Origin: Candidatus Poseidoniales archaeon
Lineage (GTDB): Archaea > Thermoplasmatota > Poseidoniia > Poseidoniales > Poseidoniaceae
Assembly: GCA_003602605.1 (NCBI GenBank)
Contig: QQRW01000018.1
Location: 286 to 64,285 of the forward strand
Direction of reading: 5' to 3'
DNA: 64,000 nucleotides
Shown: in pieces, positions 2,741-62,941 of the stretch
Layout: the number at the start of each line of letters is the position of its first letter
Position numbering within the stretch: the stretch's first letter is position 1
The notes under the pieces: generated by a model
Database searches by the model: none
Told to the model about the DNA's origin: nothing
Seen by the model: the letters and a program-made list of their open reading frames with translations, nothing else
Program-made: the position numbers and the translations under genes

Positions 2741-5215
2741 ATGCGTTCAACCGTCTTTGTCGCGCTTCTCCTCTGCACAATGCTGCTTCCAGTCACTGCG
2801 ATAGCGACTGAAGGCCGTGAGCAGCCAAATTGCTTGAACGATACTCCTGATGCATTCTCTAGCGCCACAGTTATCGGTGACGGCGCCTGCATCAAAATCA
2901 ACCTCGGTGTATTGACTCCCGGTGATGTTTACGATCTCTCCATCATTGTAAGCCAAGACGCTCTTGATGTTCTCGTGTTCGATCAGAATTCAGTGCAACC
3001 GTATGATTTAGGCCAATCGTATCGCTCTTCATACGAACAAGTACCTTCGACTGAATCTGCTCTCGGCAGTTTCGAGTTTCACTGGAAAGTTCCTCCTTCC
3101 ATCACTTCCAAATCTTGGTACATTGTTTTCGATAACACTGCTCATTCTGGAGACCAAGGCATGGGCGACCAGGGTGGCGCTGACAGTCGTGCCAGTTTGA
3201 CCATTTCCAAAATTACAGAATCGTATTGGACACCCTTCCATGATGTCATCGGTATGCAAAGTGATTCCTACAAAAATCTACTTTCAGGAGACGATTTCCG
3301 ACTTGATGCGGGGACCACAGTCGTCGTTTCGGCTTGGTCATTGGAAGGCAACGGTGATGTCTATCTTCAGACTCAAGGGATGAATGATTTGTACACCTCG
3401 GGTGGTGTTGGTTCTTTGTTCATTACCGGTGCTGGACTACGCTCAGTCGACGGCTCCGACTCTTTTTCTTGGGTTGTTCCAAACGAATTGGACGGAGAGC
3501 CACTTTTCCTCATCGCTGACAACACAGATACACCGGTTGGAGGGGGTGATGGAACTTCTCCAGTCCGAATGACTGTGCGCATAGAATTCGCCCCACTGCT
3601 CAGTCCCGTCATCAACGACGATTCAAATGGAACGACCATCATTGGCAGGGCAGTTTCACTTGACGCAATGGCGACTCCAAATCGGCTTGAACAAGTTGCA
3701 TCAGCATCTTGGGACTTCGATGCTGATTTCGATTCCAACGGAGACGGTGACAAAGTCAACGACGCTGATGCTTCAGGTTGGCAAGCCCTTGCCATTTGGA
3801 CAACCCCTGGAGATCGAACTGTGACGCTTACCGTCACATCTCCAACCGGCGAAGTCGCCACAACCTCTTCGATAATCTCAGTGACCGATGTCGTAGATCC
3901 CGTTGCACGAATCGGTGGTAATGGACAACCCATCAGCGGTGGCTGGAAACTGGTAACTGACCAATCGATTGCTCTCAATTGCGATGGCAGTACCGATGAT
4001 GACCAAGTGAGCACCTGCTCATGGAACCTCGATGGAACTCCATACGGGCAAAACAATTCCATCACACTCTCTTGGAGCGATATTGGCTTGCATACAGTGA
4101 CACTGACGGTCACTGACCCATCCGGAAACAGCAACACCATTTCGACGCTGATCAGGGTGACCGATACCACTCTACCCGTTCTTGACCAGACCTCTCTTGA
4201 TTTACTTCCGTCATCTGGTTTGATTGATGATACGATAAAGTGCAGTGCCTCAGCCAAAGACTCCTACGACTCAAGTGCAGTACTGCGTTACCATTGGGAT
4301 ACAAATCCAAACATTGACTCCGACGGCAACGGTAATGCTCGAGATGATGCAGATTTGAGTGGTTCGACTGCAGAAATTGTTTTTGCAAAGGCGGGAAGTT
4401 ATGATGTTGTTCTCACCGTTTTCGATCAGTCCAATAATTCCGACAGCCATGCCTTCACGATTACCGTTGAAAACGCAGATGAAAAAGGGACCATCGCTGG
4501 AATTTTGATGGTGGTCTTGTTTATTGGGGCAATCACCATGGGCGTTGCTTTGGTTGGTCATCGTCGCTGGCAAAAAGGAATTGCAATGCAACTTCTTCTT
4601 GATCGAGGTTTGAGTTCCGCAGAGGCAAAAGCCCACATGTCAAACGTTTCGAGCACACGAAAACTTCCTCTATTTTCGTCTGCAATTGCACTTGCAGGAT
4701 TGGAAAGCAACGACTCTGTGCAATCAACATCTTCGAAAGCCGAAGACGCAAAGGCTGCTGAAATGGCAGCAATTTACGGAACTGAACCGTCCGTTGCACC
4801 AACTTCGCAAGGCGCTTTCGCCCCTCCAACATTCGCTTCTCGAACCGTTTCAGCCGGTAGTCAAGCAGCAGCCGCAGATGCCATGGCCTTGTTTAACGAC
4901 GATTCGCCTGCACCATCGATACAACCTGTCCTACAAACGCCCCCCCCTCAAACACTCAATGAACTCACGCCCACAGCACCGATTCAAACCGTTGTTCAAA
5001 GCGGCGGTATTTCATTGCCCGACGGTGTCTTGAAACCAGCTAACGCCACACCGCCTCAACCGACTCCAGTGCCCGAACAAGTATCGCAGCCTGTGCAGAC
5101 ACGGGTCACGTGCAGCGCGTGTTCTGCAGTCTTTGCAATACAGATGCCCGTCGGTGTCAATAAAGTGGTCGTTGCTTGCCCTTCATGTTCGAAGGATTCA
5201 ACCGTTGAGTTATGA
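2741..5215 (+). CDS. secreted PKD-repeat surface protein with single TM and C-terminal cytoplasmic zinc ribbon
   Basis: Signal peptide (MRSTVFVALLLCTMLLPVTAIA); repeated 'TVTLTVTxPxG...VTD' PKD-like modules; TM (IAGILMVVLFIGAITMGVALVG) then Pro/Ala/Gln-rich linker and C-x2-C-x17-C-x2-C at extreme C-terminus. ORF track starts at 2717; internal Met at 2741 gives a cleaner signal peptide. Confidence 0.7.
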   Translation: MRSTVFVALLLCTMLLPVTAIATEGREQPNCLNDTPDAFSSATVIGDGACIKINLGVLTPGDVYDLSIIVSQDALDVLVFDQNSVQPYDLGQSYRSSYEQVPSTESALGSFEFHWKVPPSITSKSWYIVFDNTAHSGDQGMGDQGGADSRASLTISKITESYWTPFHDVIGMQSDSYKNLLSGDDFRLDAGTTVVVSAWSLEGNGDVYLQTQGMNDLYTSGGVGSLFITGAGLRSVDGSDSFSWVVPNELDGEPLFLIADNTDTPVGGGDGTSPVRMTVRIEFAPLLSPVINDDSNGTTIIGRAVSLDAMATPNRLEQVASASWDFDADFDSNGDGDKVNDADASGWQALAIWTTPGDRTVTLTVTSPTGEVATTSSIISVTDVVDPVARIGGNGQPISGGWKLVTDQSIALNCDGSTDDDQVSTCSWNLDGTPYGQNNSITLSWSDIGLHTVTLTVTDPSGNSNTISTLIRVTDTTLPVLDQTSLDLLPSSGLIDDTIKCSASAKDSYDSSAVLRYHWDTNPNIDSDGNGNARDDADLSGSTAEIVFAKAGSYDVVLTVFDQSNNSDSHAFTITVENADEKGTIAGILMVVLFIGAITMGVALVGHRRWQKGIAMQLLLDRGLSSAEAKAHMSNVSSTRKLPLFSSAIALAGLESNDSVQSTSSKAEDAKAAEMAAIYGTEPSVAPTSQGAFAPPTFASRTVSAGSQAAAADAMALFNDDSPAPSIQPVLQTPPPQTLNELTPTAPIQTVVQSGGISLPDGVLKPANATPPQPTPVPEQVSQPVQTRVTCSACSAVFAIQMPVGVNKVVVACPSCSKDSTVEL

Positions 5216-5363
5216 ACCGCCCGTAGGGCGAACTTGAGAACCCTTGAAAATCCGTCCATGAAAGGGATGGGTTCTCATAGTGGTAATTCTTGAGTGCATC
5301 ATGGTAGAGGGCCAACCGCGTTTGATTCGAGTTGGTCTGCCTCAGGCATCAGACCCCCGTCGA

Positions 5364-8300
5364 ATGGCTGTAGCCATGGTCATCTTGATGTTCATATCGA
5401 TGGCTCAACCCGCAGGTGCAGACTTGTCGGTTTCAAGAAATGACTTTGGCGTGCTGGATGAATTGGACGAGACGCTTTCAAAGAGAACCGCTAACGGAGA
5501 AGCCATTGTAGCTGCAGAAGGAGCAGCTGACGCTCTGAATGCGGTTGACCTTGCTCAACGCCCAGTTGATGCCACTGATCCACTTTCTCAGGCGAGCTCT
5601 TACCTTGACAGTTTGGAACTCCGAGACGCTTCACCGTTTGAAGCGGACCATCCTCGACCGTATGAGTTTCTAATGGACGCTTCTACTCAACCTGACGGTT
5701 GGCCTTACAATTTGTTCGAAACTTTGTTTTCAGTACAATCACTCGGTCTTGACAACATTCTCGGCATTGGAATCAATACGTATGCAGTGTACGTTAATTT
5801 CACTTCAAGAGATAACGGTCCATCACATGAAGCATGGGTTGAGGGCACTTTTACTGGTGAACTTTTGGTTGGAACAGATCTTGTTTTGTTCAACAATTAC
5901 ATCGATATTGACGGCGATTCAGTCGATGATTTATCGGTCGGACTAACCATTCAAGGCATCATAACCCAAGGCGATGGATTTGGAATTGAGCTTGGCGATT
6001 GTGAGTTAACACCGAGCCCTGGCCCGGGCATACCCCCAGTTACCGTACCGTGTGTGGAAGAATTGTGGGTGCGCCCGACCTTCCAATGGAAAGTTACTGC
6101 GCTTAACCAGAACGATTTCTTGTGGAACAACATGTCGCACCTTGAAGTCAGCTTGATGAAAGGTCTAGCTTTCGATTTAACGCTTGACGACTCGGAATCA
6201 TATGCCATTGTCATCGACACACGATTTACTCAACCTCCTCACGAATTTACACTTGGAGTTGGTCTACAGAAAATGGCATTCAATGTGAATGCGGTTATCA
6301 CCAATACTGCTGGTTTCATCACTTCACTGTTTAACGGCGGCATCAATGCATCGTCGCTAAGTCTGACATCCATTTCTGCTCCTTACGCCATCCGAGTCTC
6401 AAATCCTGATTCCGACAGTTCGGACCGTCAATCCGACTGCGATGATGGCACTGGTTACTATGACCCGTTCACCGATCATAAAACTGAAAGCCATTTGCAT
6501 AAATGTGGATTTGGTCTCGGTGTTGGCTTCATTCGATTTGATGGGTACGGTGGAGGAACGACTGCTCCGATTTTGGAAACCGCATACATCGATGTAGGTT
6601 TCCACCCTGAAGAAGGTGAAACACGAATCCCTAACGAAGTTGACATCACTCTTCGCAACGATAATCTCGGTGCGAACACATTTGATACTGTAGAAATCTT
6701 TTCCGATTACGGCTCAGACATGTACTTCCACTATTTCGAAGACCGTTCGAATACTACGGAGGGTGATTCACCTTTCGGAAACACAACGGATTCTCGAACC
6801 TGGATTCGAGGCCTCCCCTCGGGAACACTTCACCCCGATGAAATCAATGCTATTTTTACCATGATTGGTGAGGCCCCAGGAAGCGCAAATTTACCCGGAG
6901 AAATTCCGAGCCGTCTTTCAATGATGATTGCGATAAAGAACTTCTCAGGCGACAACACCAACAACGTTAACGATCCAACTTTGCCGGTAAATCCTGCTGC
7001 ACCTCCAAACACGCTTGTTGCCATTGTAGCGACCGAATCAATCGATCTTTTGGACTACAAATCGACCTTCAAACGTGGGGGGTATGATGCTGACTCATCT
7101 TCCATTCAACTGAGCATAGCAAATGTTCCCAAAGTCATCATTGTTGAGGGCAGTTTTCAAATCCCCGAAAGCGGCTTGAGTCGAGTATCCTACGATAACC
7201 CCAACCTCAACACGGTTGCTCAGATTTTCGACAATGCCTTACTGACCGTGATTGAAGTTATTCTGGATGTTGGAGATGTTGTCAACGGTCTACCTGAATC
7301 GATTGTCGGAACGGCTGGTTCTTCTGGGGGAGCGGTACGAATGAACTGCTACAACCAAGTCCGATTGAGCCTACCTGCCTCGACGCGCAGTCCGATGGAA
7401 ATTGGTTCAGTTTCGATTGCAATCTCGAGCAGTGACCAACCTTGGTTGCCTGACATCGACCATATTCTACTGTCAGAGGACACCAATATCCAAACTGTAA
7501 ACGGCCGCCTTGGTGTTCAAGAGCCACTTGTTCCCGTTGCAATGAGCGCTCGAATTGGAGGCATATCGAGCGTCAGCCATGATTACGACCCGATTAACGA
7601 TGTTCGACAAATGGAATTACGAGGAATTAACGGAGGACCCCTTTTGATCGGTCACCTGTTACACGATGACGGAGATTTGACCACTGCCAATCAACAGTCT
7701 GCTACGCTCTCAAACCGCCCCAGCACGTTCAATGTTACTCAAACTGCGGAAGCCCTTACCTACACAGCTTCTGCTCCAATTGGAACCATCACTTACGGAG
7801 GTAACGGAGATGGCCAGCGAAACGCAATACGCTTGAACGGTCTTCCCTCTTCGTTCCAACTTATTTTGGGCGATACTGTCGGTTATGTCGCAGCAACCCC
7901 AATGGAATCGATTGAAGTTCAACTCACGAACTCGACTCAACCGCTGACAATGGACGGCGACCACTTCCGATTCTGGGTGAACGAGACCTCTGGTGAAGCA
8001 AGCCTCAGTACCGCAATTTCAGATGTTACGAGCCTGCGTCGCCTTTCCCCCTTAGATCCTGGTTCGAAAGGGCCTGAAGGGAACTCGCGCATCGAACTTA
8101 TCCGCGCCAACTCCGCTCCAATGAATGTCTTGATGGAAGACGACACCGTCTACGAAGATTCCTTCAAGGGAATGAACGGGCGTGTGGCGATCGACCCGCT
8201 TCCAGCAAACATCACTATTGCTTATCCAAGTGGGGTCGATTCAGGCGGACTTGAATTGCCTACTTTTGACGAAGGCGACGGCGTTCAAGCCCTGTCGTTC

Positions 8301-10004
8301 TTTTTGGGTGACTTAGTCAATTTCGGCTCTCTTGTCAATGATTTCGTTTATTCGACGGTTGTGGATTTGGGCGGTTTAGAGGCCGGAAATGAAGACATGT
8401 CACTTGGTCTTGATTTGATTACCGGCGAATTGTTTAATGTCACTATGGACATCGAAAAAGGCTCGAATGTGATTGATGAACCTGAATGGTCTCACGGTAT
8501 TGGGATGGAAGTTTTCGAAGCAACAGTTGTTTCGTTCAACCTCTCACGAATGCCAACGTATACATTATCGAGCCGTGAAGTTGTTGACGAGGCACTGCGT
8601 GATTACAAAATCACTCCAGCGGAATATGAACTGGTTTTGGAAGTGTTTGAGAACACCAACATCTCCGGATTTATTCCACTTCTTCTTGCACTGGAAGACG
8701 GTATTGTGCTCGATTCAGAAATTGAAGGAGTGAACTTGAGCCAGTGGGAGGAGCAGGGAATTACCTTTGAATTACGTCGCTCATGGCACATGCGCTCTTG
8801 GTTGCCGAGTCTTCCAACCGGCCGGATACTCTTGGAATATGATTTCAGAATGATCGGCGACCTTCCCGTGTACGAACTTGATGTTTATCTCGAACAATGG
8901 ACTCCTAAACGCCAGCAACTGAGTATAATCGTGAACGGACTCGAAGGCCGCGACCTCGAATTTGTCATTTCTGGACTGGACACAACCGAGGCCAACAACG
9001 TAGAAGCGAATGCCGTATTTTCGACGCAGGACAACCTCACCGTTCCTCGCGTATCCATCGATATGCATTATGACCTCGGAACCCGTTTGGATTCTGCCCA
9101 TGCTACTTTCATCGACCGGCGAGAACTTAGCCGCGTTGAGGCGTTAATCGTAGGCGTTCCCCAAGAAACCGATTTTTCTACCACGATTGGTGATATTTTC
9201 CTCATTGATCTCTTGGTACCGTCGCAGTACCAAATCGATGGCCACTCTGCAGAATCGTTGATGATTCAACAGATGCGTTTCGTCGATGGGTTCTGGTGGC
9301 CTGCTACCGCATTCATGCGTGATTTACCTGGTGAAATGCATCTTGCTGCTCAGCCGAACACCGAGTTTGATATCCGCTCAGAGGTCTCGTTCCAGGGGAT
9401 GATGGAACTCGATTACAGGTCCAACACTGATGACATGGATTTGTATTTGGAAGCAACTGGCCGGTCTGTTGACACAAAGGGAGATGTTCTGATGCTCGCC
9501 GAAGACCTTCCTTCCACATTCGTTCTCGAGATGACCGATGACTGGGGCGTTCGTGTCGCATCTTCAGGTGACGGTGTAAGCCGTCTTTATCTCAAACAGA
9601 CCGATGTTCCATCGTCACCGGGAGTTGTAGTGGATCGCGTCGAAATAATCGGCCAAAACCTCCAATCTGCAACCATTCATATTTACACTGGACCGTTCCA
9701 GTATCCATTGATTGTCATTGATGACATTACCAACGGCCGAATCGTGGCCAGTGCTGAGGCCACCGTTGAGCCGTACCATACAACTGGTATGCTTGAAGGA
9801 TATTCATTCAACGGTCGTGCTGTTCTTCTCGATGCCCAATTCACGGGCATCTTACCGACCGCTTCGTCGATTGGCGTCAACGGTATGGTCACCGATCTCT
9901 CCTTGGTAGGAACGCTTACCGACGATACTGTAGAAACCCGTCACATTTTGCTTGTTGAACCGATTACGACCGTCATTGCCAGTGGTTTGGCACTCATTTG
10001 GTGA
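5364..10004 (+). CDS. giant secreted surface protein (about 1546 aa) with C-terminal hydrophobic anchor
   Basis: Long ORF with N-terminal signal peptide (MAVAMVILMFISMAQPAGA) and C-terminal hydrophobic tail (TTVIASGLALIW). No recognisable enzymatic motif. Start moved to internal Met at 5364. Confidence 0.6.
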   Translation: MAVAMVILMFISMAQPAGADLSVSRNDFGVLDELDETLSKRTANGEAIVAAEGAADALNAVDLAQRPVDATDPLSQASSYLDSLELRDASPFEADHPRPYEFLMDASTQPDGWPYNLFETLFSVQSLGLDNILGIGINTYAVYVNFTSRDNGPSHEAWVEGTFTGELLVGTDLVLFNNYIDIDGDSVDDLSVGLTIQGIITQGDGFGIELGDCELTPSPGPGIPPVTVPCVEELWVRPTFQWKVTALNQNDFLWNNMSHLEVSLMKGLAFDLTLDDSESYAIVIDTRFTQPPHEFTLGVGLQKMAFNVNAVITNTAGFITSLFNGGINASSLSLTSISAPYAIRVSNPDSDSSDRQSDCDDGTGYYDPFTDHKTESHLHKCGFGLGVGFIRFDGYGGGTTAPILETAYIDVGFHPEEGETRIPNEVDITLRNDNLGANTFDTVEIFSDYGSDMYFHYFEDRSNTTEGDSPFGNTTDSRTWIRGLPSGTLHPDEINAIFTMIGEAPGSANLPGEIPSRLSMMIAIKNFSGDNTNNVNDPTLPVNPAAPPNTLVAIVATESIDLLDYKSTFKRGGYDADSSSIQLSIANVPKVIIVEGSFQIPESGLSRVSYDNPNLNTVAQIFDNALLTVIEVILDVGDVVNGLPESIVGTAGSSGGAVRMNCYNQVRLSLPASTRSPMEIGSVSIAISSSDQPWLPDIDHILLSEDTNIQTVNGRLGVQEPLVPVAMSARIGGISSVSHDYDPINDVRQMELRGINGGPLLIGHLLHDDGDLTTANQQSATLSNRPSTFNVTQTAEALTYTASAPIGTITYGGNGDGQRNAIRLNGLPSSFQLILGDTVGYVAATPMESIEVQLTNSTQPLTMDGDHFRFWVNETSGEASLSTAISDVTSLRRLSPLDPGSKGPEGNSRIELIRANSAPMNVLMEDDTVYEDSFKGMNGRVAIDPLPANITIAYPSGVDSGGLELPTFDEGDGVQALSFFLGDLVNFGSLVNDFVYSTVVDLGGLEAGNEDMSLGLDLITGELFNVTMDIEKGSNVIDEPEWSHGIGMEVFEATVVSFNLSRMPTYTLSSREVVDEALRDYKITPAEYELVLEVFENTNISGFIPLLLALEDGIVLDSEIEGVNLSQWEEQGITFELRRSWHMRSWLPSLPTGRILLEYDFRMIGDLPVYELDVYLEQWTPKRQQLSIIVNGLEGRDLEFVISGLDTTEANNVEANAVFSTQDNLTVPRVSIDMHYDLGTRLDSAHATFIDRRELSRVEALIVGVPQETDFSTTIGDIFLIDLLVPSQYQIDGHSAESLMIQQMRFVDGFWWPATAFMRDLPGEMHLAAQPNTEFDIRSEVSFQGMMELDYRSNTDDMDLYLEATGRSVDTKGDVLMLAEDLPSTFVLEMTDDWGVRVASSGDGVSRLYLKQTDVPSSPGVVVDRVEIIGQNLQSATIHIYTGPFQYPLIVIDDITNGRIVASAEATVEPYHTTGMLEGYSFNGRAVLLDAQFTGILPTASSIGVNGMVTDLSLVGTLTDDTVETRHILLVEPITTVIASGLALIW

Positions 10005-53385: not shown

Positions 53386-54030
53386 ATGATAAATCGGATT
53401 CGGCAAATGCTATTTAGAATGCGTCATAAAAACAGCCCTTTCCCGGGGTCTTCTGAATATTGGGACCGCCGTTACCGTAGTGGAGGTACTTCGGGGGATG
53501 GTTCGTACGGCGGTTTGGCGGATTTCAAGGCCGAAATAATCAACGTATTTGTCGAGGAAAACGGTATTGATACTGTAGTCGAATTAGGTTGTGGTGATGG
53601 GAACCAACTTGGATTGATGGATGTCCCACAGTATACTGGTTATGATATTTCTAAAAAAGCTGTAGAGATGTGTGCAAAAAAGTACTCGGCTGATTCTTCA
53701 AAGAAATTTATTCACTATTTACCCAACCAATACGATGGTGAGGCGAAAGCGCAACTTTCACTCTCATTGGATATCATTTACCACTTAGTCGAGGATGTAG
53801 TATTTGAAACGTATATGCACCATTTATTCCAGTTAGCCAGTGATTGGGTCATTGTCTATTCCAGTAACTCGGAGGATCCGGAAGCAGAAGGGATTGAACA
53901 CTGTAGGAATCGAAAGTTCGTCGATTGGGTTGGTGCAAATATTTCAGGCTGGGAACTTGTTAACAAAATCAAAAACCGCTACCCTGAACGTTCAAGATGT
54001 GATTTCTATATTTACAAAAAGTCGGCATGA
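53386..54030 (+). CDS. class I SAM-dependent methyltransferase
   Basis: 'VVELGCGDGNQLGLM' (motif I GxGxG), 'YTGYDIS' (motif II). Confidence 0.6.
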   Translation: MINRIRQMLFRMRHKNSPFPGSSEYWDRRYRSGGTSGDGSYGGLADFKAEIINVFVEENGIDTVVELGCGDGNQLGLMDVPQYTGYDISKKAVEMCAKKYSADSSKKFIHYLPNQYDGEAKAQLSLSLDIIYHLVEDVVFETYMHHLFQLASDWVIVYSSNSEDPEAEGIEHCRNRKFVDWVGANISGWELVNKIKNRYPERSRCDFYIYKKSA

Positions 54031-54053
54031 TTTAACCGGTATCCAGGCGAAGG
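53951..54053 (+). repeat. direct repeat copy 1 (about 100 bp, 3 mismatches versus copy 2), spanning the methyltransferase 3' end and stop
   Basis: 'aacaaaatcaaaaaccgctaccctgaacgttcaagatgtgatttctatatttacaaaaagtcggcatgatttaaccggtatccaggcgaagg' recurs at 55248. Confidence 0.85.
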
Positions 54054-54201
54054 CCGCTCGGCTTTTTGGTGTTCTTGCTCATCCACATTCTAAATTGCAA
54101 AACACCAAATCTGGTGTGTGTGACCAAAGTGTTATTGCCAAAATGCTGGTTATCGAAATCACACCAAAAATAAACCTTTCATTAAAAATTGAAAATGAAA
54201 T

Positions 54202-55164
54202 CTATTTGTCATTAATTAAAAGTTCATATTCCATGCCATTTTTATTATTCGGCATATCTAACTTATGAGGTAAATTGTAGTCTGTTGAAACATTTGAGTG
54301 TTTGGAAAAAGTTACCTCCAATACAAGGGGCAAATCATCATCTTCGCGTAATGGACGGAAATTATTAGCATGAACATGAACTAAATTTAAACTCAATTCA
54401 TTTATGAACTTTTCAATTTTGTTAAGATGTATATCAACATCATGAAACTCAAGCACTAAGCCAGTAATTCTCTCTTCATTAGCGACAATGTCATGCAAGA
54501 TCCGATATTCAGATCCTTCTATATCAATTTTCAAAAAAATATTGTTACTTTCAGTTTGATTTAAAACATCCATAAAAGTGCAGTACTGCTCACTTTTAAT
54601 ATTCGAGCCTACAAATTTTTGGAGATGATTAACATTTGGTTGAGTTTTAATATCCATGCTTACAAATTTTGTGATATGATTAACATTTGATTGAGAGAAG
54701 AATTTTCTATAATTTAAGAGCACATTTAGCGAATTCAGAAAGCGTTTAAATCTATAAATCCTTAATGCAGATCCCAAGAGGCGTCTGAAGAAAATTCTTT
54801 CACTAACACTCGCATCATAAGCCTCTATGGATACTTTTTTTTGATTTAAGAAATCCTCTTCAAAACTCCAATCATCACTAATACCAAATCCTAAAAGTAA
54901 ATCTGTTTGTTCAATGTCTGATTTTGAAACGAGATATCCTCCATCATAATCCCTTCCAATTCGGACTAAATCCGTTGATTGCTTTATTGAAAAGAAATGT
55001 GGTAGTCGTGCTTTCATAATGTTATGGACAGGAGGAGGGGCAATAAGTGTTTTTGAATGGTTGATAATATCTGTTGCTAAGGGCAGACGCTGGGAAAAAG
55101 TCCCATGTTCCTTCTTTAGTAAGGGGTTATCCGAAACCCCTTTGCATTTTATATCCCGATACAT
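54202..55164 (-). CDS. FkbM-family methyltransferase
   Basis: 'FLKIDIEGSEYRILHDI' (FkbM 'DIEGxE' signature); low GC; lies between the two direct repeats. Confidence 0.6.
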   Translation of the reverse strand: MYRDIKCKGVSDNPLLKKEHGTFSQRLPLATDIINHSKTLIAPPPVHNIMKARLPHFFSIKQSTDLVRIGRDYDGGYLVSKSDIEQTDLLLGFGISDDWSFEEDFLNQKKVSIEAYDASVSERIFFRRLLGSALRIYRFKRFLNSLNVLLNYRKFFSQSNVNHITKFVSMDIKTQPNVNHLQKFVGSNIKSEQYCTFMDVLNQTESNNIFLKIDIEGSEYRILHDIVANEERITGLVLEFHDVDIHLNKIEKFINELSLNLVHVHANNFRPLREDDDLPLVLEVTFSKHSNVSTDYNLPHKLDMPNNKNGMEYELLINDK

Positions 55165-55247
55165 GGGGATTCAGTGGGTCGATACAGACGCTCCCCTCTG
55201 CTTGACCCATCTTGAAGGCGCAGGGTTATGATGGAGGCTATCTCGTT

Positions 55248-55342
55248 TAACAAAATCAAAAACCGCTACCCTGAACGTTCAAGATCTGATTTCTATATTT
55301 ACAAAAAGTCGGCATCATTTAACCGGCATCCAGGCGAAGGTC
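55248..55342 (+). repeat. direct repeat copy 2
   Basis: Near-identical to 53951-54053; encodes a pseudo-ORF fragment 'NKIKNRYPERSRSDFYIYKKSA'. Confidence 0.85.
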
Positions 55343-55353
55343 CAACCTACCGT

Positions 55354-56250
55354 TTACCCTTGCTCAAGAAGACGTTCTTGTTCTGCGAGCAGAGCATAGG
55401 TGCTGGGAAGGAAGGTCTGGCGAAGTTGCACATCGTTTTGTTGTTCAGAAACATTGGTCTTATGCAGGGCTTGTTCTTGGCTCCCAGGTATATTGTCAAA
55501 TTCAATGCTTTCCTCTGCTACTAAACCAATACCAACGCCGTGTTCAATGGATTGAAATGTGAGCCAAATGTCATCGGCTCGGGGACATGTTTCCCTAAAT
55601 CCATCTCCTGCCTTCCGCATTATCTCAAGGAAATTCGGGGGAAACAATACTCCTGAGACACACGTGGCAAAATTCAGATGACTCGGTCCTTTAATTCCGG
55701 GTGGCCACGAATTATAGGGGGCGAGCCCTTTCTTGTCATCACTGAGAACTATTCTGTGTGCTCGATGTGCCATGACTGAAGTTGGTTCACGTTGTGCTGC
55801 TTCAAGGATGCGTTCCAGCCACCAATTTGGATAGAATATATCGTCGTCGGCAACAATATGTGGGCGAGAAAAATCTGGAGCGTTTTGAATCCACCACTGT
55901 ATCTTCGTATGCGGACCGAGATTTTCAGCCAGATGGATTTCCAAACCTCGTTTCATCAGCCGTTTCAAGGCCTTAGTTGGATGCAATACATCTTTCTCTA
56001 CATCTAAATAAAGCATGAATCTTGAGGGGAGAACCGTCCCCTTAGCAATTGTCTCGATGGCGATGTGGGCAGTTTTCAAGCGTTGCCCGTAGGTTGTCAT
56101 TGAGACAGTGGGGCCTTCTGGATGAAGGATGGAGGAAGAAGTGAAACGGTTTCTCAATCCGAGACGAAATGCTCTCAACGGCAGCAGAATCCTCTTTAGA
56201 TGATTTCGGAGGTAGGATTTCACATTGGGAACTCTCATGCACTTTACCAA
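55354..56250 (-). CDS. putative glycosyltransferase (DxD-type)
   Basis: 'PHIVADDDIFYPNWW' DxD-like motif; no closer assignment possible by eye. Confidence 0.4.
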   Translation of the reverse strand: MVKCMRVPNVKSYLRNHLKRILLPLRAFRLGLRNRFTSSSILHPEGPTVSMTTYGQRLKTAHIAIETIAKGTVLPSRFMLYLDVEKDVLHPTKALKRLMKRGLEIHLAENLGPHTKIQWWIQNAPDFSRPHIVADDDIFYPNWWLERILEAAQREPTSVMAHRAHRIVLSDDKKGLAPYNSWPPGIKGPSHLNFATCVSGVLFPPNFLEIMRKAGDGFRETCPRADDIWLTFQSIEHGVGIGLVAEESIEFDNIPGSQEQALHKTNVSEQQNDVQLRQTFLPSTYALLAEQERLLEQG

Positions 56251-59139: not shown

Positions 59140-59379
59140 TTATGCCCATTGGTTCTGGAGCTCTTCCATCTGTTTGATGAGCGCCACGATATCCAATGTT
59201 TCATCCTGCTCGTGAGCAAGTTCGATTCGATTCTTGACTGCTTGAACAAATTCTTGTTCTGGTTTTACACCAGTGATGTTTTCGATGAAGTCATCCAGTG
59301 AAGTGCCTTTTCCTTGAGCAATTGCAATTCGTGCTTTGATTTTCTCAGCGTCGTCCTTAGGTTTTCGGATTCCACTCAT
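59140..59379 (-). CDS. small (79 aa) predicted all-helical Lys/Glu-rich protein, translationally coupled to upstream JAMM gene
   Basis: ATG overlaps JAMM stop (ATGA on minus strand). Sequence 'MSGIRKPKDDAEKIKARIAIAQGKG...MEELQNQWA'. No Gly-Gly C-terminus. Confidence 0.4.
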   Translation of the reverse strand: MSGIRKPKDDAEKIKARIAIAQGKGTSLDDFIENITGVKPEQEFVQAVKNRIELAHEQDETLDIVALIKQMEELQNQWA

Positions 59380-59927
59380 GCTCTCACCTCTTCGGTGTTG
59401 AGGTTGCTTTCATACCAATCACCCCAAGGAATAATTTCTTCATCTGACCAATCATTCAACGGGCCGTTGGATGCAATTCTTGCCGTGTCTTCAGTCAACG
59501 GTAGCATGGTGGCGTTGTGAGCACATTTGACTCCAGGTGACCCGAGAACCATTGCTTTCTCAACGATACCTACTCCGATGGAGAGGCTTCGAGTATCTGT
59601 TCCGGACCAGTACGCACTGAATCCTGGATGTGTATGTACCCAGAGTTTGAACGGTGCAACACAACCAATCGGTGGTGAAAGTTGGACGAAACCGGAGGTT
59701 CCCCAATCGATCGAGATGACATTCTCTGCATCGATAAGCACCGATGTCTCAAGACCAGCGAGAACCGATATTGCATAGACGACATCCCATCGACCGTTCT
59801 GTGCTGCACGCTGTTGTACATCGAGCAAGACTTCGTCGTCAATTTGCCGTTGCTGAGCCATTTCAGTCACATGAGACCACATCTCTTCATCGACATTCAG
59901 TTGTTCTAGTCCGGGAATGAATATCAT
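59376..59927 (-). CDS. JAB/MPN (JAMM) metalloprotease-domain protein
   Basis: 'LWVHTHPGFSAYWSGTD' = HxHx7Sx2D JAMM zinc motif with upstream acidic residues. Start chosen at Met overlapping E1 stop (ATGA); ORF track extends to 60041 in another frame overlapping the E1 gene. Confidence 0.65.
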   Translation of the reverse strand: MIFIPGLEQLNVDEEMWSHVTEMAQQRQIDDEVLLDVQQRAAQNGRWDVVYAISVLAGLETSVLIDAENVISIDWGTSGFVQLSPPIGCVAPFKLWVHTHPGFSAYWSGTDTRSLSIGVGIVEKAMVLGSPGVKCAHNATMLPLTEDTARIASNGPLNDWSDEEIIPWGDWYESNLNTEEVRA

Positions 59928-60577
59928 GCATTCACCTCCATTGACGAGCTGCTTACCTTCGGGAATTCGAAACTCCCGTATGTGAGGCTTCCAATCGATT
60001 GCAACGGCGCACGCTTTTCTCTCAATTGCTGCAGAATCCATTGAGCACCGAACGTCCCAGCGATGGAAAATCCAAATTCAAGATTTCCTGCATCGAGCGC
60101 TCCCTCCACTTGGCAACTCATCGGTTCGTGGTCGGGTGTCATTTGAGCCACTAATTCTGGGTTGGAATCTGAAGTGAATACCATCCAACCATCACCAGAG
60201 CATCGTAAATCAATCCAAGGCACATCAAGGGAATGAACGAGGCGACGTGGCTCAGGTCTGTCGACACAGACCACAATCAAATCATATCCCTTAAGTTGTT
60301 CAAACTGCCTCAAGTTTTCGGCAACTGAGCGTACTTGGATGCCATTGGCGTTGGACCATTTGCCTGCGAGAGCATCCACTTTGAATGCCCCAATATCGGA
60401 AGCAGTGTAGTTTTGATGACCGAGGTTTGAGGCTTCAACAGTATCACCATCCATTAGGGTAATTTGGGCACTGAGTTGTATTCGATCAAGTGCTGGAACG
60501 AGTAGGTCGACAACGGTTGTTCCGATGCCTCCGGCACCAACTATCAGCAGCGATTTTGGCGATGATTTTTCATCCAT
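59924..60577 (-). CDS. minimal E1-like (ThiF/MoeB/HesA superfamily) adenylyltransferase
   Basis: 'LLIVGAGGIGTTVVDLLV' nucleotide-binding loop, 'MDGDTVEASNLGHQ' (DxDxxExSNLxRQ-like), 'IVVCVDRPEPRR'. Only 217 aa, with no C-terminal CxxC or rhodanese. Confidence 0.7.
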   Translation of the reverse strand: MDEKSSPKSLLIVGAGGIGTTVVDLLVPALDRIQLSAQITLMDGDTVEASNLGHQNYTASDIGAFKVDALAGKWSNANGIQVRSVAENLRQFEQLKGYDLIVVCVDRPEPRRLVHSLDVPWIDLRCSGDGWMVFTSDSNPELVAQMTPDHEPMSCQVEGALDAGNLEFGFSIAGTFGAQWILQQLREKRAPLQSIGSLTYGSFEFPKVSSSSMEVNA

Positions 60578-60808
60578 GAGGACTTAAGAAATCGACCTTA
60601 CATAAACTTCGAGGAAGGTGATTCACCAACGGTTTGGATTGACCCTGCTGTCATGAATGCTATGGTCGTTGGAATACTCTGCGTTTTCTTTATGCCTTCA
60701 ACTGAATAAGAGAGAACAAAACTAAATAGCAAAAACAAGGAGAGAAATATATGGCAAGTGCTTCAACAAGAGTGTGGGCACACAATCAAGTTCAACTGAG
60801 GTTTTGAC

Positions 60809-61648
60809 ATGCTTCGAGCGTTTTATTGGCGCCTTAATCTTGGCCTTAAGAAAATAAAATCAAAGCGTCTTAGGAAGAAACTTGGTAGCAATATCAAAGC
60901 CATCATTACGAACAGTGAGAACGGTATATTCGCAGTTGACCCTGAGGATCTTGAAGTAGGCCAAAAGTTACGTTCAGGTGGATTTGGTATCGGCGAAGTG
61001 GAACGCCTAAAGAAATTCATCAACAATAAATCCAAGGTTTTGATTGTTGGAACGCATATTGGTTCGTTAGCAATACCACTTTCAGAACATTGTAAGGAAA
61101 TAACAGCGATTGAAGCAAATCCGAACACCTTTGAATTACTCGAGATAAATCTCCAACTTAACAACAGTAAAAACATAACACCACACAATATTTTTGCCAA
61201 TGATTCTCACGAAAAAGTAGAGTTTCTACTCAATACAGTAAACTCAGGTGGAAGTAAGAGGAAACCAAAAAAGAGCAGTTTTCTGTACGATTATGATGAC
61301 CCCGAAATTATTGAATTAGAATCACACAGACTTGATGATTATTTACCTCAACATGATTATGATCTCGTTCTATTGGACATCGAGGGTTCTGAGTACTTTG
61401 CAATGAAAGGTATGAAAGAAATTCTATCCAATTGTAACACATTAGTTGTTGAATTCCTACCGCATCACCTCAAGAACGTCGCAGATATCGATGTCGAAAC
61501 ATTCCTCTCTGTTTTACCAGATCATTTTACCAAGTTTAAATTACCAGACAACAAACAAGAACACAACATTTCAGATGTCAAGACAGTACTGCAGGACATG
61601 TATGACGCTAACATCGGCGAGGATGGAATCATTTTCACTTCAAATTAG
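60809..61648 (+). CDS. FkbM-family methyltransferase
   Basis: 'LVLLDIEGSEYFAMKGMKEIL' FkbM signature; AT-rich. Confidence 0.6.
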   Translation: MLRAFYWRLNLGLKKIKSKRLRKKLGSNIKAIITNSENGIFAVDPEDLEVGQKLRSGGFGIGEVERLKKFINNKSKVLIVGTHIGSLAIPLSEHCKEITAIEANPNTFELLEINLQLNNSKNITPHNIFANDSHEKVEFLLNTVNSGGSKRKPKKSSFLYDYDDPEIIELESHRLDDYLPQHDYDLVLLDIEGSEYFAMKGMKEILSNCNTLVVEFLPHHLKNVADIDVETFLSVLPDHFTKFKLPDNKQEHNISDVKTVLQDMYDANIGEDGIIFTSN

Positions 61649-61705
61649 AACTTGGTTCTACTGTAACGGCTCAACATTATAGCAACCATCCCTGTCACAC
61701 GACAC

Positions 61706-62941
61706 ATGGCTAACCATCAAAGAAAGCGCCTTTTACTCGTGAAAGGCTCTTTTGAGCACTTCGGTGGTGGTGAAAGAGATTTGATTAACAATCTCGAAGC
61801 TTGGTCTGAATATTTCGAATTGAGTGTCGCAACATTACATCCTAACCAGGAACTCGTAGAGAAATTAAATCAATTGGATATACCACTGTTTTCTCCAGTA
61901 AGCAATTGGTCTTACTCGCGAGGAATTTTTTCTGAAATTTTCGCAAAATCATCAAAAAACGCGTCAAGAAAATGGTACTCTATGCTTTCTTTAACAAAAC
62001 AAGGAGTTGGTTTGAGTACATCATTTTCCAACATTGACGCCGTGAACATAACTACTGGGATGGCTTCTTTAGAAATTCTCCCATACATACCTGAGGACAT
62101 CCCTGTTCACACATACATGCACGAACCAAACAGGGGGCTGCACAGCAACGACTTACACTTCGATGTTGACGGAACACCCAAACAAAACCTCAAGTTAACA
62201 AATCTCCTTTTGTCAAAACAAAGAAAAATAGACGAAAAATTAGTAACTCTTGCATCCAAGAGAGGGAAGATCAGTGGTAATTCGAAAAATACGTGTGATC
62301 GAATCAAGCAAGTTTACGATGTCGAATCGGACTTTCTTTATCCCAGCATAAATACAGATCTTTGGCCGATTAAACCAACCAAAGATGAAGACTGGGAGTC
62401 TGTAAAAAAGGAATTTGACCTTGTCAAAAACAAGTATGTAATTACCATTGGACATGCTATTTTTGCAAAAGGACTGTGGGAGACGATCACAAAACTTAGC
62501 AATTCAAATTTGCAAGTCGTCCAAATCGGCGGTGGGGTCAATGAAAAACACGAGGAGCACGCCAGAAAAATGAACGTAGAATTAAAAGCCCTGCCAAGAG
62601 TCTCTCAAGCGACCATTCGAGCATTGATGAGAAATGCTAAGGCATTGGTTAGCAATGCTATCAACGAACCATTCGGCTTAACTCCACCAGAAGCATATTT
62701 CGTCGATTGCCCAGTAATAGTATCGAATCAAGGAGGATTTACAGAAACCGTTGTTGATGGAAAAACAGGACGGTTAATGGAGGACGGAGATGATTGGATT
62801 TTGGCAATCGATCAAGGGCATAAAAATCGAAAGGAGTGGTCGAAGGCTGGGCGAGAACACATCAAAAAAATCGATTTAACACCTGAAACTCAAGCAAGGA
62901 AAGTATTCGAATCCTTTTCTCAGTATTTTGAAGAGGAATAA
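61706..62941 (+). CDS. glycosyltransferase, GT4-like
   Basis: C-terminal 'SNAINEPFGLTPPEAYFVDCPVIVSNQGGFTETVVDGKTGRL' GT4 motif. Confidence 0.7.
   Translation: MANHQRKRLLLVKGSFEHFGGGERDLINNLEAWSEYFELSVATLHPNQELVEKLNQLDIPLFSPVSNWSYSRGIFSEIFAKSSKNASRKWYSMLSLTKQGVGLSTSFSNIDAVNITTGMASLEILPYIPEDIPVHTYMHEPNRGLHSNDLHFDVDGTPKQNLKLTNLLLSKQRKIDEKLVTLASKRGKISGNSKNTCDRIKQVYDVESDFLYPSINTDLWPIKPTKDEDWESVKKEFDLVKNKYVITIGHAIFAKGLWETITKLSNSNLQVVQIGGGVNEKHEEHARKMNVELKALPRVSQATIRALMRNAKALVSNAINEPFGLTPPEAYFVDCPVIVSNQGGFTETVVDGKTGRLMEDGDDWILAIDQGHKNRKEWSKAGREHIKKIDLTPETQARKVFESFSQYFEEE

Follow-up and report, generated by a model that had tools for sequence, protein, structure and literature searches.

A three-gene operon in Poseidoniaceae

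The window analyzed here is a 64,000-nt stretch of DNA from a Candidatus Poseidoniales archaeon (contig QQRW01000018.1), and the module of interest occupies positions 59140-60577 on its minus strand. The module consists of three overlapping genes, which encode a minimal E1-like enzyme, a JAMM-type metalloprotease and a small helical protein. These genes and their associated signals, including Shine-Dalgarno (SD)-like motifs, are as follows.

59924-60577, minus strand: first operon gene, encoding a 217-aa E1-like adenylating enzyme of minimal size with a ThiF fold; Pfam ThiF match
59376-59927, minus strand: JAMM/MPN+ metalloprotease, 183 aa, with a three-helix N-terminal extension
59140-59379, minus strand: predicted four-helix partner protein, 79 aa, family-specific; gapless family alignment and AlphaFold2 (AF2) model
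59924-59927, minus strand: ATGA stop/start overlap between the E1 and JAMM genes, read from the sequence; NTGA kept in relatives
59376-59379, minus strand: ATGA stop/start overlap between the JAMM and third genes, likewise read from the sequence and kept in relatives
59932-59939, minus strand: SD-like GGAGGTGA, within the 3' end of the E1 gene, for the JAMM start
59384-59390, minus strand: SD-like GAGGTGA, within the 3' end of the JAMM gene, for the third-gene start
60598-60606, minus strand: TATA-like box TTTATGTAA, putative operon promoter, 21-29 nt upstream of the E1 ATG

The E1 gene ends in ...GAG GTG AAT GCA TGA, within which the ATG of the JAMM gene (59927) is embedded, and the JAMM gene ends in ...GAG GTG AGA GCA TGA, with the third gene starting at 59379. 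A mechanical listing of open reading frames (ORFs) gives the JAMM protein as 221 aa (59376-60041), but its true start is the ATG at 59927 that overlaps the E1 stop codon, yielding a protein of 183 aa. The coordinates and both overlaps described in the initial annotation of this DNA were verified, and the overlaps proved to be conserved in relatives: NTGA is kept at the first junction in ~92 of 94 related loci and at the second in ~89 of 91. SD-like motifs stand ahead of the JAMM start codon in 76 of 77 distinct junctions and ahead of that of the third gene in 69 of 77, and because these motifs are embedded in the gene ends, the E1 and JAMM proteins recurrently terminate in 'EVxA'. In related loci, an A/T-rich box recurs at a constant spacing from the E1 ATG, which fits the E1 gene being the first of a leaderless or near-leaderless transcript; the box is a putative promoter, implying an mRNA of that kind.

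The E1 protein is identical on 13 marine metagenome contigs, and its named homologues come from Candidatus Poseidoniaceae or Poseidoniales (Marine Group II, MGII). When one genome was scanned for each GTDB species, JAMM relatives turned up in 142 species, the best 80 of which all carry Poseidoniales-type names. Co-conservation of the three genes had been set beforehand as a test, and it was borne out in all 94 loci of the window type (L001-L094), where the order E1, JAMM, third gene is kept on one strand; the third gene is missing from only three of these, in which it is cut off by the end of the contig. Ratios of non-synonymous to synonymous substitution (dN/dS) against close orthologues (L015, L017) were 0.13 for the E1 gene, 0.03 for the JAMM gene and 0.04-0.06 for the third gene, and purifying selection is thus strong on all three. 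Together, the ATGA junctions, the SD-like motifs and the low dN/dS values across related loci indicate that the arrangement of these genes did not arise by chance. Judged from sequence, the three ORFs are real genes that are apparently co-transcribed, translationally coupled and strongly constrained.

Two metagenome-assembled genomes each contain two sequence-distinct window-type loci (L022 and L042 in CASIAW01; L062 and L069 in JAYYDY01); these pairs could be paralogues or could reflect mixed bins.

A minimal E1-like enzyme with a single family-wide cysteine

The 217-aa protein had been proposed to be a ThiF/E1-type enzyme, and this assignment stands: Pfam ThiF (PF00899) matches it at 64.1 bits (cut-off 28.1), with the domain beginning at residue 8. 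Its best NCBIfam model is PRTRC_ThiF (TIGR03736), at 58.1 bits far under the cut-off of 144.75; the UbaA model (NF047750) scores 31.1 bits against a cut-off of 450, and the MoeB and ThiF equivalogs are likewise far below their cut-offs. PADLOC returned Cap2-type E1-E2 proteins (no more than 36 bits) and BilD (20.7 bits), in both cases over the generic Rossmann region only. When the E1 family profile was compared with the PDB, MccB was the top match (E 1e-10), followed by two 2025-era 'THIF-type' chains and then by Uba1, Uba4, MoeB and ThiF, with all matches confined to the N-terminal half of the protein. A tblastn search of plasmids recovered PRTRC ThiF genes that share 25-29% identity with the E1 and cover as much as 81% of it.

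Invariant positions include GAGGIG, D43, D45, N51, Q55, K66, D106, R111, R125, C155-Q156 and Q179-W180. The nucleotide and Mg residues expected of the ThiF superfamily (GxGxxG and the Asp of the D-x-x-D/N site) are intact. Across the wider family, which includes enzymes of 183-217 aa and comprises the window-type proteins together with the ubiquitin-like protein (Ubl)-linked and viral ones described below, the shared residues are G14, G16, G17, I18, G19, D43, D45, V47, N51, Q55, K66, D99, D106, R111, W121, D123, R125, C155, Q156, G177, A178 and W180, all of which the window protein has. In place of the canonical Arg of SNLxRQ, the window E1 has His54 (SNLGHQ), a residue that never varies among cellular relatives and becomes Tyr in the viral proteins. 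No CxxC zinc pairs were found in the E1.

The initial annotation had put forward C104 and C126 (in 'CVDRPEP' and 'DLRCSGDG') as candidates for a catalytic cysteine. Neither is conserved in the wider family, in which C155 is the sole family-wide cysteine; this residue ('SCQ') is kept in all 190 classifiable E1s, whether window-type, Ubl-linked or viral, and one further sequence is ambiguous at this position. The protein ends ~60 residues after C155. Aligned by eye, the window sequence PDHEPMSCQVEGA...GAQWILQQL resembles E. coli ThiF PDNQEPERNC(184)RTAGV...GTLQALEAIKLL.

Some window-type orthologues carry additional sequence. An HRDC domain (Pfam 59 bits) is inserted after K66 in one group (P0034; L013, 256-1272), an insert that hints at nucleic-acid binding, and others (P0022, P0078, P0118; L011, 8001-9083) have an N-terminal extension of ~140 aa. 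This extension shares a short motif, P-x-[IL]-D-T-[LF]-x-[GS]-L-I-L, with the 315-aa Ubl-fused domain encoded in two divergent loci (L180, L225). The possibility that the extension is a decayed di-Ubl found no support (hhalign probability 0.25%).

The JAMM protease and its helical partner

The second protein has the E...HxH-x7-S-x2-D zinc site and the MPN fold that are the criteria for JAB/JAMM/MPN+ metalloproteases. The Prok-JAB model barely detects it (E 0.0076 over the motif), and each of its eight PDB profile hits with E <= 10 is a JAMM protein aligned at the motif. None of E60, H98, H100, S108 and D111 varies among 30 homologues with identities as low as 44%, and the confident AF2 model (predicted local distance difference test score, pLDDT, 92) has an intact MPN fold, in agreement with the intact HxHx7Sx2D motif noted earlier. 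Residues 1-57 form a three-helix extension in which W17 and R46-W47-D48 are conserved. One segment of the JAMM protein, ISIDWGTSGFVQLSPPIG (window 59661-59738), resembles the C-terminal ...IDW..V..V.L.P..VGG of the GG-terminated proteins described in the next section (tblastn E 0.003), a likeness that may be due to chance.

The third protein varies little in length. Of its 93 homologues, all at least 66% identical over the aligned stretch, 88 are exactly 79 aa long and five look truncated or mis-started; the 76 distinct sequences across the 94 loci are 78-80 aa and align without gaps. R5, P7, D9, E12, G23 and E57 are invariant in a subset of 25 sequences. Of the 76 distinct sequences, 56 end in W-A and 65 have Trp as the next-to-last residue. 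The final position is occupied only by A, V, I or S, and none of the proteins ends in GG. AF2 modeled it as four helices with moderate confidence (pLDDT 66). Searches of Pfam (with 25 members), two PDB profile searches, a Foldseek search with the model and a search of PHROGs returned nothing meaningful. According to the model, then, this is an orphan helical protein and not a ubiquitin-like beta-grasp protein, as its initial description as helical and unlike a Ubl had anticipated.

A GG-terminated candidate modifier in sister lineages

A full HMMER search with the JAMM profile yielded 147 cluster representatives, two of which are E1-JAMM fusions of 405-407 aa with a ThiF domain followed by a JAMM domain. 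When metagenomes were scanned with JAMMs of the more divergent cellular type, 80 loci were recovered, and E1-JAMM fusions appear again in several of them. In many of these divergent loci, a small gene directly upstream of the E1 gene encodes a protein of 73-129 aa that ends in ...V-R-[IL]-[LM]-P-G-L-V-G-G plus 1-32 residues. A hidden Markov model (HMM) of this ~65-aa GG protein has matches in 36 divergent metagenome loci, mostly cellular, with one type that may be on a mobile element. Its size, its GG end, its occurrence in tandem and in fusions, and its ThiS-like C-terminal pattern make it a candidate beta-grasp ubiquitin-like modifier.

The relationship between this protein and the E1 varies among loci. 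Two tandem GG-ending domains are fused in frame to the E1 in L208 (4687-5992), L229 (4323-5589) and L237, and GG domains are fused to a 315-aa protein in L225 (two domains; 834-2247) and L180 (one domain; 4062-5337). At the other extreme, the GG gene lies ~6 kb from the E1-JAMM-third gene operon and on the opposite strand in L265 and L266, and another gene separates it from the E1 gene in L264; unlinking of the modifier therefore has precedent. Several Ubl-containing loci have IMPDH, enolase, isocitrate dehydrogenase and RNase H genes nearby, indicating that they are ordinary chromosomes, and one locus is named Thalassarchaeaceae.

Homologues of the third protein (HMM, 15-73 bits) follow the JAMM gene in Ubl-containing sister operons, in which five more residues come after the conserved Trp (WQELHC, WQSELA, WREDNS). 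The four-part cassette of Ubl, E1, JAMM and helical protein thus exists in sister lineages of the window type.

One variant (L257, 1-895 and 2503-5808; GCA_049606035.1, JBMYVD010000060.1) encodes, in this order, a Ubl, an E1, a JAMM, a ~70-aa protein ending in ...EWS (74 aa in L257), and an AAA ATPase. Its contig, binned as Poseidoniaceae, also carries a gene for a T7-type single-subunit RNA polymerase (PF00940) and may represent a different kind of virus or mobile element from the magroviruses. Homology between the ~70-aa protein that follows the JAMM in this variant and the 79-aa protein was undetectable (hhalign probability 0.6%).

The cassette in magrovirus-like contigs

The most distant group of JAMM proteins, which are 197-263 aa long and K/E/N-rich with acidic tails, is found on 327 IMG/VR contigs, magrovirus-like in appearance and up to ~95 kb long. 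We examined 80 loci from these contigs (L097-L176). In 65 of them, an E1 gene (33-115 bits against the cellular E1 profile) lies 0-1.7 kb upstream of the JAMM gene on the same strand, and the remaining 15, which have no E1 match, contain less than 2 kb of DNA upstream of the JAMM gene. At least 28 viral loci also encode, a few kb upstream, a 65-70-aa protein of the GG family that ends at GG or at GG plus 1-2 residues; in L124, for example, the Ubl gene (~66 aa) is at 3601-3802, the E1 gene at 7359-7914 and the JAMM gene at 7910-8357. Viruses therefore carry Ubl, E1 and JAMM together. The viral E1 is ~183 aa and has Tyr at the position of His54, with the SCQ cysteine retained. The third-protein family was not detected in viral loci, and a search of GenBank phage records found no relative of the viral JAMM.

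The neighbors of the viral cassette encode an ATP-dependent DNA ligase, a Cpn60-type chaperonin and a class II ribonucleotide reductase, and they match the magrovirus replicative gene cluster as published (PMC5434244). We found no mention of ThiF, JAB or ubiquitin in the literature on magroviruses and Poseidoniales viruses that we searched, which included that report.

Two further features of the viral loci were recorded. C-termini with three acidic residues (often ...GGEEE or ...EEE) occur in 6-11% of predicted viral proteins of at least 60 aa, the viral JAMMs included, compared with 1.5% in cellular loci. In the main viral subgroup (e.g., L120, L101 and L103), the gene after the JAMM gene encodes a 112-128-aa CPxC...CxxC zinc-ribbon protein ending in ...KWLA, ...KWLAKEK or ...KWLVKEK; this ending echoes the W-A end of the 79-aa protein, with no detectable homology.

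Genomic neighborhood

The module lies within a conserved block that includes the genes for a convergent 3-hydroxyacyl-CoA dehydrogenase/enoyl-CoA hydratase (3HCDH/ECH), whose stop codon abuts the third gene, Taw1 (radical SAM, wyosine), an epimerase, GST, PhoU/PHO4, HxlR and other helix-turn-helix regulators, and Dus. Adjoining genes for a glycosyltransferase and an FkbM-type methyltransferase are present in some genomes and absent from others. Within the window, G+C content falls to 0.39-0.41 at 54001-56000 and at 60001-62000, compared with ~0.49 elsewhere. The two low-G+C segments cover the flanking glycosyltransferase and methyltransferase genes, a pattern consistent with these being variable insertions that were acquired around a core operon.

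The location of the module had prompted the suggestion that it acts in a glycan pathway or at the cell surface. This suggestion can be set aside: the glycosyltransferase and methyltransferase neighbors differ between genomes, Taw1 is the gene immediately upstream of the module in L007 and L008, and the block in which the module lies is syntenic, so that the 'glycosylation island' amounts to local variation around the core operon and carries no functional link. A fourth gene in L009 (340 aa) was also ruled out as a component of the system, having no relatives elsewhere.

Proposed function and alternatives

We consider it moderately probable that the module is the Poseidoniaceae (MGII) form of a lineage-specific, E2-less ubiquitin-like protein-modification cassette, the modifier of which is supplied in trans or has been lost. 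The initial annotation had noted that neither a Ubl nor an E2 was visible, and the 64-kb window indeed contains no E2 and no GG-terminated Ubl, the latter as judged by HMM and tblastn searches and a listing of GG-ending ORFs. It had left two possibilities, that the Ubl is encoded elsewhere or that the module is non-canonical, and we favor the first over the second since, in relatives, the GG protein adjoins the E1, is fused to it or is found within ~6 kb of it. The modifier of the window type would accordingly be supplied from elsewhere in the genome, with its loss as the alternative. A neighbor-joining tree was built from E1 domains with PRTRC ThiF as the root; it is a rough distance tree that carries no support values. 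In it, the window type forms a derived clade nested among Ubl-linked cellular clades, with the lineage of Ubl-Ubl-E1 fusions as its sister and the viral clade branching below. This topology suggests that linkage to the Ubl is ancestral and was subsequently lost in the Poseidoniaceae window type.

To the gene structure, coupling, folds, motifs and selection described above, we would add the following chemical steps, all of which we infer. The E1, probably a homodimer like ThiF, MoeB and UBA5, would bind ATP via GxGGIG, D43, D45, K66 and D106 and adenylate the C-terminal glycine of a ~65-aa GG-terminated modifier. The modifier would then be taken onto Cys155, whose surroundings ('PD..EP..SCQ.EGA') would by motif make it the equivalent of Cys184 in the crossover loop of E. 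coli ThiF. The JAMM, as a zinc protease, would cut C-terminal tails or fusion partners after GG and would also strip the modifier from its targets. The 79-aa helical protein would be an obligate partner, held at a fixed ratio via translational coupling, and could be an adaptor, a regulator or a preferred target.

Several observations weigh against an E2-less conjugation cassette of this kind. No member of the GG-Ubl family was detected by HMM, tblastn or GG-ending ORF listing in the 94 window-type loci, as in the window itself, nor was one found within 59 kb on one side of the module or 10 kb on the other. The GG protein has no Pfam or PDB sequence match, and its comparison with E. coli ThiS gave an hhalign probability of 2.9%, such that membership of the ThiS/MoaD family by sequence is not significant. 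Adenylation by the E1 is assumed rather than assured, because the ATP-contacting Arg of NLxRQ is His in cellular and Tyr in viral family members. HMM comparison with E. coli ThiF gave no alignment for the C-terminal half of the E1, and the equivalence of C155 and ThiF C184 is for this reason drawn at the level of the motif only. The roughness of the distance tree also counts here.

Alternatively, the cassette could serve a sulfur carrier of the ThiS/MoaD/CysO type, in which the GG protein would be converted to a thiocarboxylate for thiolation of a cofactor, tRNA or metabolite and the JAMM would only expose the GG end, like Mec+ and QbsD. Such a role would be consistent with an E1 of the ThiF family that has a Cys in the motif holding ThiF C184, with C-terminal tails on the cellular Ubls that need trimming, with the tRNA-modification genes Taw1 and Dus in conserved synteny, and with the nucleic-acid-binding HRDC domain inserted in some E1 orthologues. 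No rhodanese, cysteine desulfurase, sulfurtransferase or biosynthetic partner is conserved adjoining the module, however, and tandem Ubls and Ubl fusions are traits of conjugated modifiers. The link to an AAA ATPase in one variant and the presence of Ubl, E1 and JAMM within a viral replication gene cluster also argue against a sulfur carrier, which we regard as unlikely.

It is also conceivable that the 79-aa protein is itself the substrate of the E1, its C-terminus (...QWA) being adenylated for ligation or modification, much as MccB treats a peptide or Cap2 a protein that is not a Ubl, and the JAMM reversing or maturing the product, with the beta-grasp modifier having been swapped for a helical one. 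The lack of a linked Ubl in the window type and the position of MccB as the top PDB match of the E1 point in this direction, as does the third protein itself, which is the most conserved of the three among close relatives and which, with its fixed length and its preference for a penultimate Trp and a small set of final residues, ends at the same alignment column in 76 of 76 sequences. But the same protein family coexists with the GG-Ubl in sister operons, which argues that it is not a replacement for the Ubl, and the five residues that follow the conserved Trp in those operons indicate that the position of the C-terminal carboxylate is not conserved. The match to MccB, moreover, is restricted to the Rossmann half of the E1, which has no N-terminal peptide-clamp domain, and the C-terminus of the third protein is predicted to be helical and not a flexible tail. 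We therefore think this arrangement quite unlikely.

A broader proposal, which we find distinctly doubtful, is that MGII and magroviruses share a private Ubl system in which the modifier-less operon acts on a Ubl encoded outside it (possibly the viral GG-Ubl, stripped or hijacked by the host) or in which the 79-aa protein is a new, non-beta-grasp modifier; if true, either use would represent a mode of E1 and JAMM action not described so far. Least probable, and in our view very unlikely, is an antiviral or virus-interaction module in which the host E1 and JAMM act on the magrovirus GG-Ubl, by stripping or diverting it, or function in a Cap2/Cap3- or Bil-like manner, since the homologous Ubl, E1 and JAMM on magrovirus-like contigs, the missing linked Ubl of the window type and the low-scoring PADLOC hits on BilD and the Cap2 E1 domain are set against a core-genome location outside any variable defense island (with synteny across 94 loci and the family in 142 species), the lack of an effector and an E2, and the limitation of the PADLOC matches to the generic Rossmann region. 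A role in defense or virus interaction would, if true, be the most interesting outcome.

The preferred reading, that of an E2-less ubiquitin-like cassette, has consequences of its own. The operon is conserved and strongly selected, and we found no description of such a system in the literature searched, where no paper joins 'Poseidoniales' with 'ubiquitin-like'. Its hosts are the ocean's dominant planktonic archaea, and the interest of the system lies in their abundance, in the minimal enzymes and in the distribution shared by hosts and viruses. The E1s of the family include very small ones of 183-217 aa, the tandem and fused GG-modifiers resemble polyubiquitin and ubiquitin fusion genes, and viruses of these archaea carry modifier, E1 and protease together. 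Two questions become open to testing, how minimal a ubiquitin-type cascade can be and whether host and virus compete via protein tagging.

Comparison with known systems

The initial annotation placed the E1-JAMM pair alongside the archaeal SAMP/UbaA/JAMM1, CysO/Mec+ and bacterial Cap2/Cap3-type systems. These turn out to be analogues only, with the defining features of SAMP/UbaA and Cap2/Cap3 failing in the case of the window module. Cap2 of type II CBASS is an E1-E2 fusion, whereas the E1 described here has 217 aa and no E2 region, and neither a CD-NTase nor an effector accompanies it. MccB, the microcin C7 synthetase, is an E1-like enzyme that adenylates the C-terminus of a peptide that is not a Ubl; its substrate is a heptapeptide, and it possesses a peptide clamp at its N-terminus, whereas the module studied here has no clamp and no export or immunity context.

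The best-scoring named relatives of the E1 belong to PRTRC systems, both by NCBIfam and by tblastn. One PRTRC operon, type 6d of Iyer et al. 2006, encodes a JAB protein with an N-terminal domain and a 'novel alpha-helical protein' (PMC1779556). PRTRC systems are bacterial, however, and reside on plasmids and integrative elements, and no ParB, E2-like protein or PRTRC protein A-F is encoded in the window or in related loci. Membership of PRTRC was rejected on the E1 score given above and on the lack of profile similarity (hhalign) between PRTRC protein B and the JAMM protein.

Compared with the archaeal SAMP/UbaA/HvJAMM1 system, the E1 is ~50 residues shorter, lacks both the CxxC zinc motifs and the canonical Arg, and scores under the UbaA cut-off. 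The GG-Ubl family has no sequence match to ThiS, MoaD or SAMP models and, unlike in the SAMP system, no GG-terminated beta-grasp modifier occurs in the window or the window-type loci. Another difference from SAMP/UbaA is that the genes described here form a tight operon with a helical partner.

In the Bub (6E/DUF6527) and Bil operons, a Ubl is encoded together with a JAB/JAMM peptidase and a small E1 of the homodimer type, and a peptidase-E1 fusion (BubCD) is a possible arrangement (PMC11601596). The Ubl of these operons is produced as a fusion that the peptidase cuts, in Bub by way of the JAB-E1 fusion, and it may contain 1-3 beta-grasp domains (PMC11601596). Unlike Bil and Bub, the loci described here, without exception, have no gene for an E2 (BilB/BubB) or for a DUF6527 protease. 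With scores below the curated cut-offs, no E2, CD-NTase or ParB, and a mismatch to PRTRC protein B, the module is a member of none of these families; its closest mechanistic analogues are archaeal SAMP/UbaA/JAMM1 and the bacterial Bub and Bil operons. Like Bub and Bil, this family includes E1-JAMM fusions, tandem Ubls and Ubl-E1 fusions.

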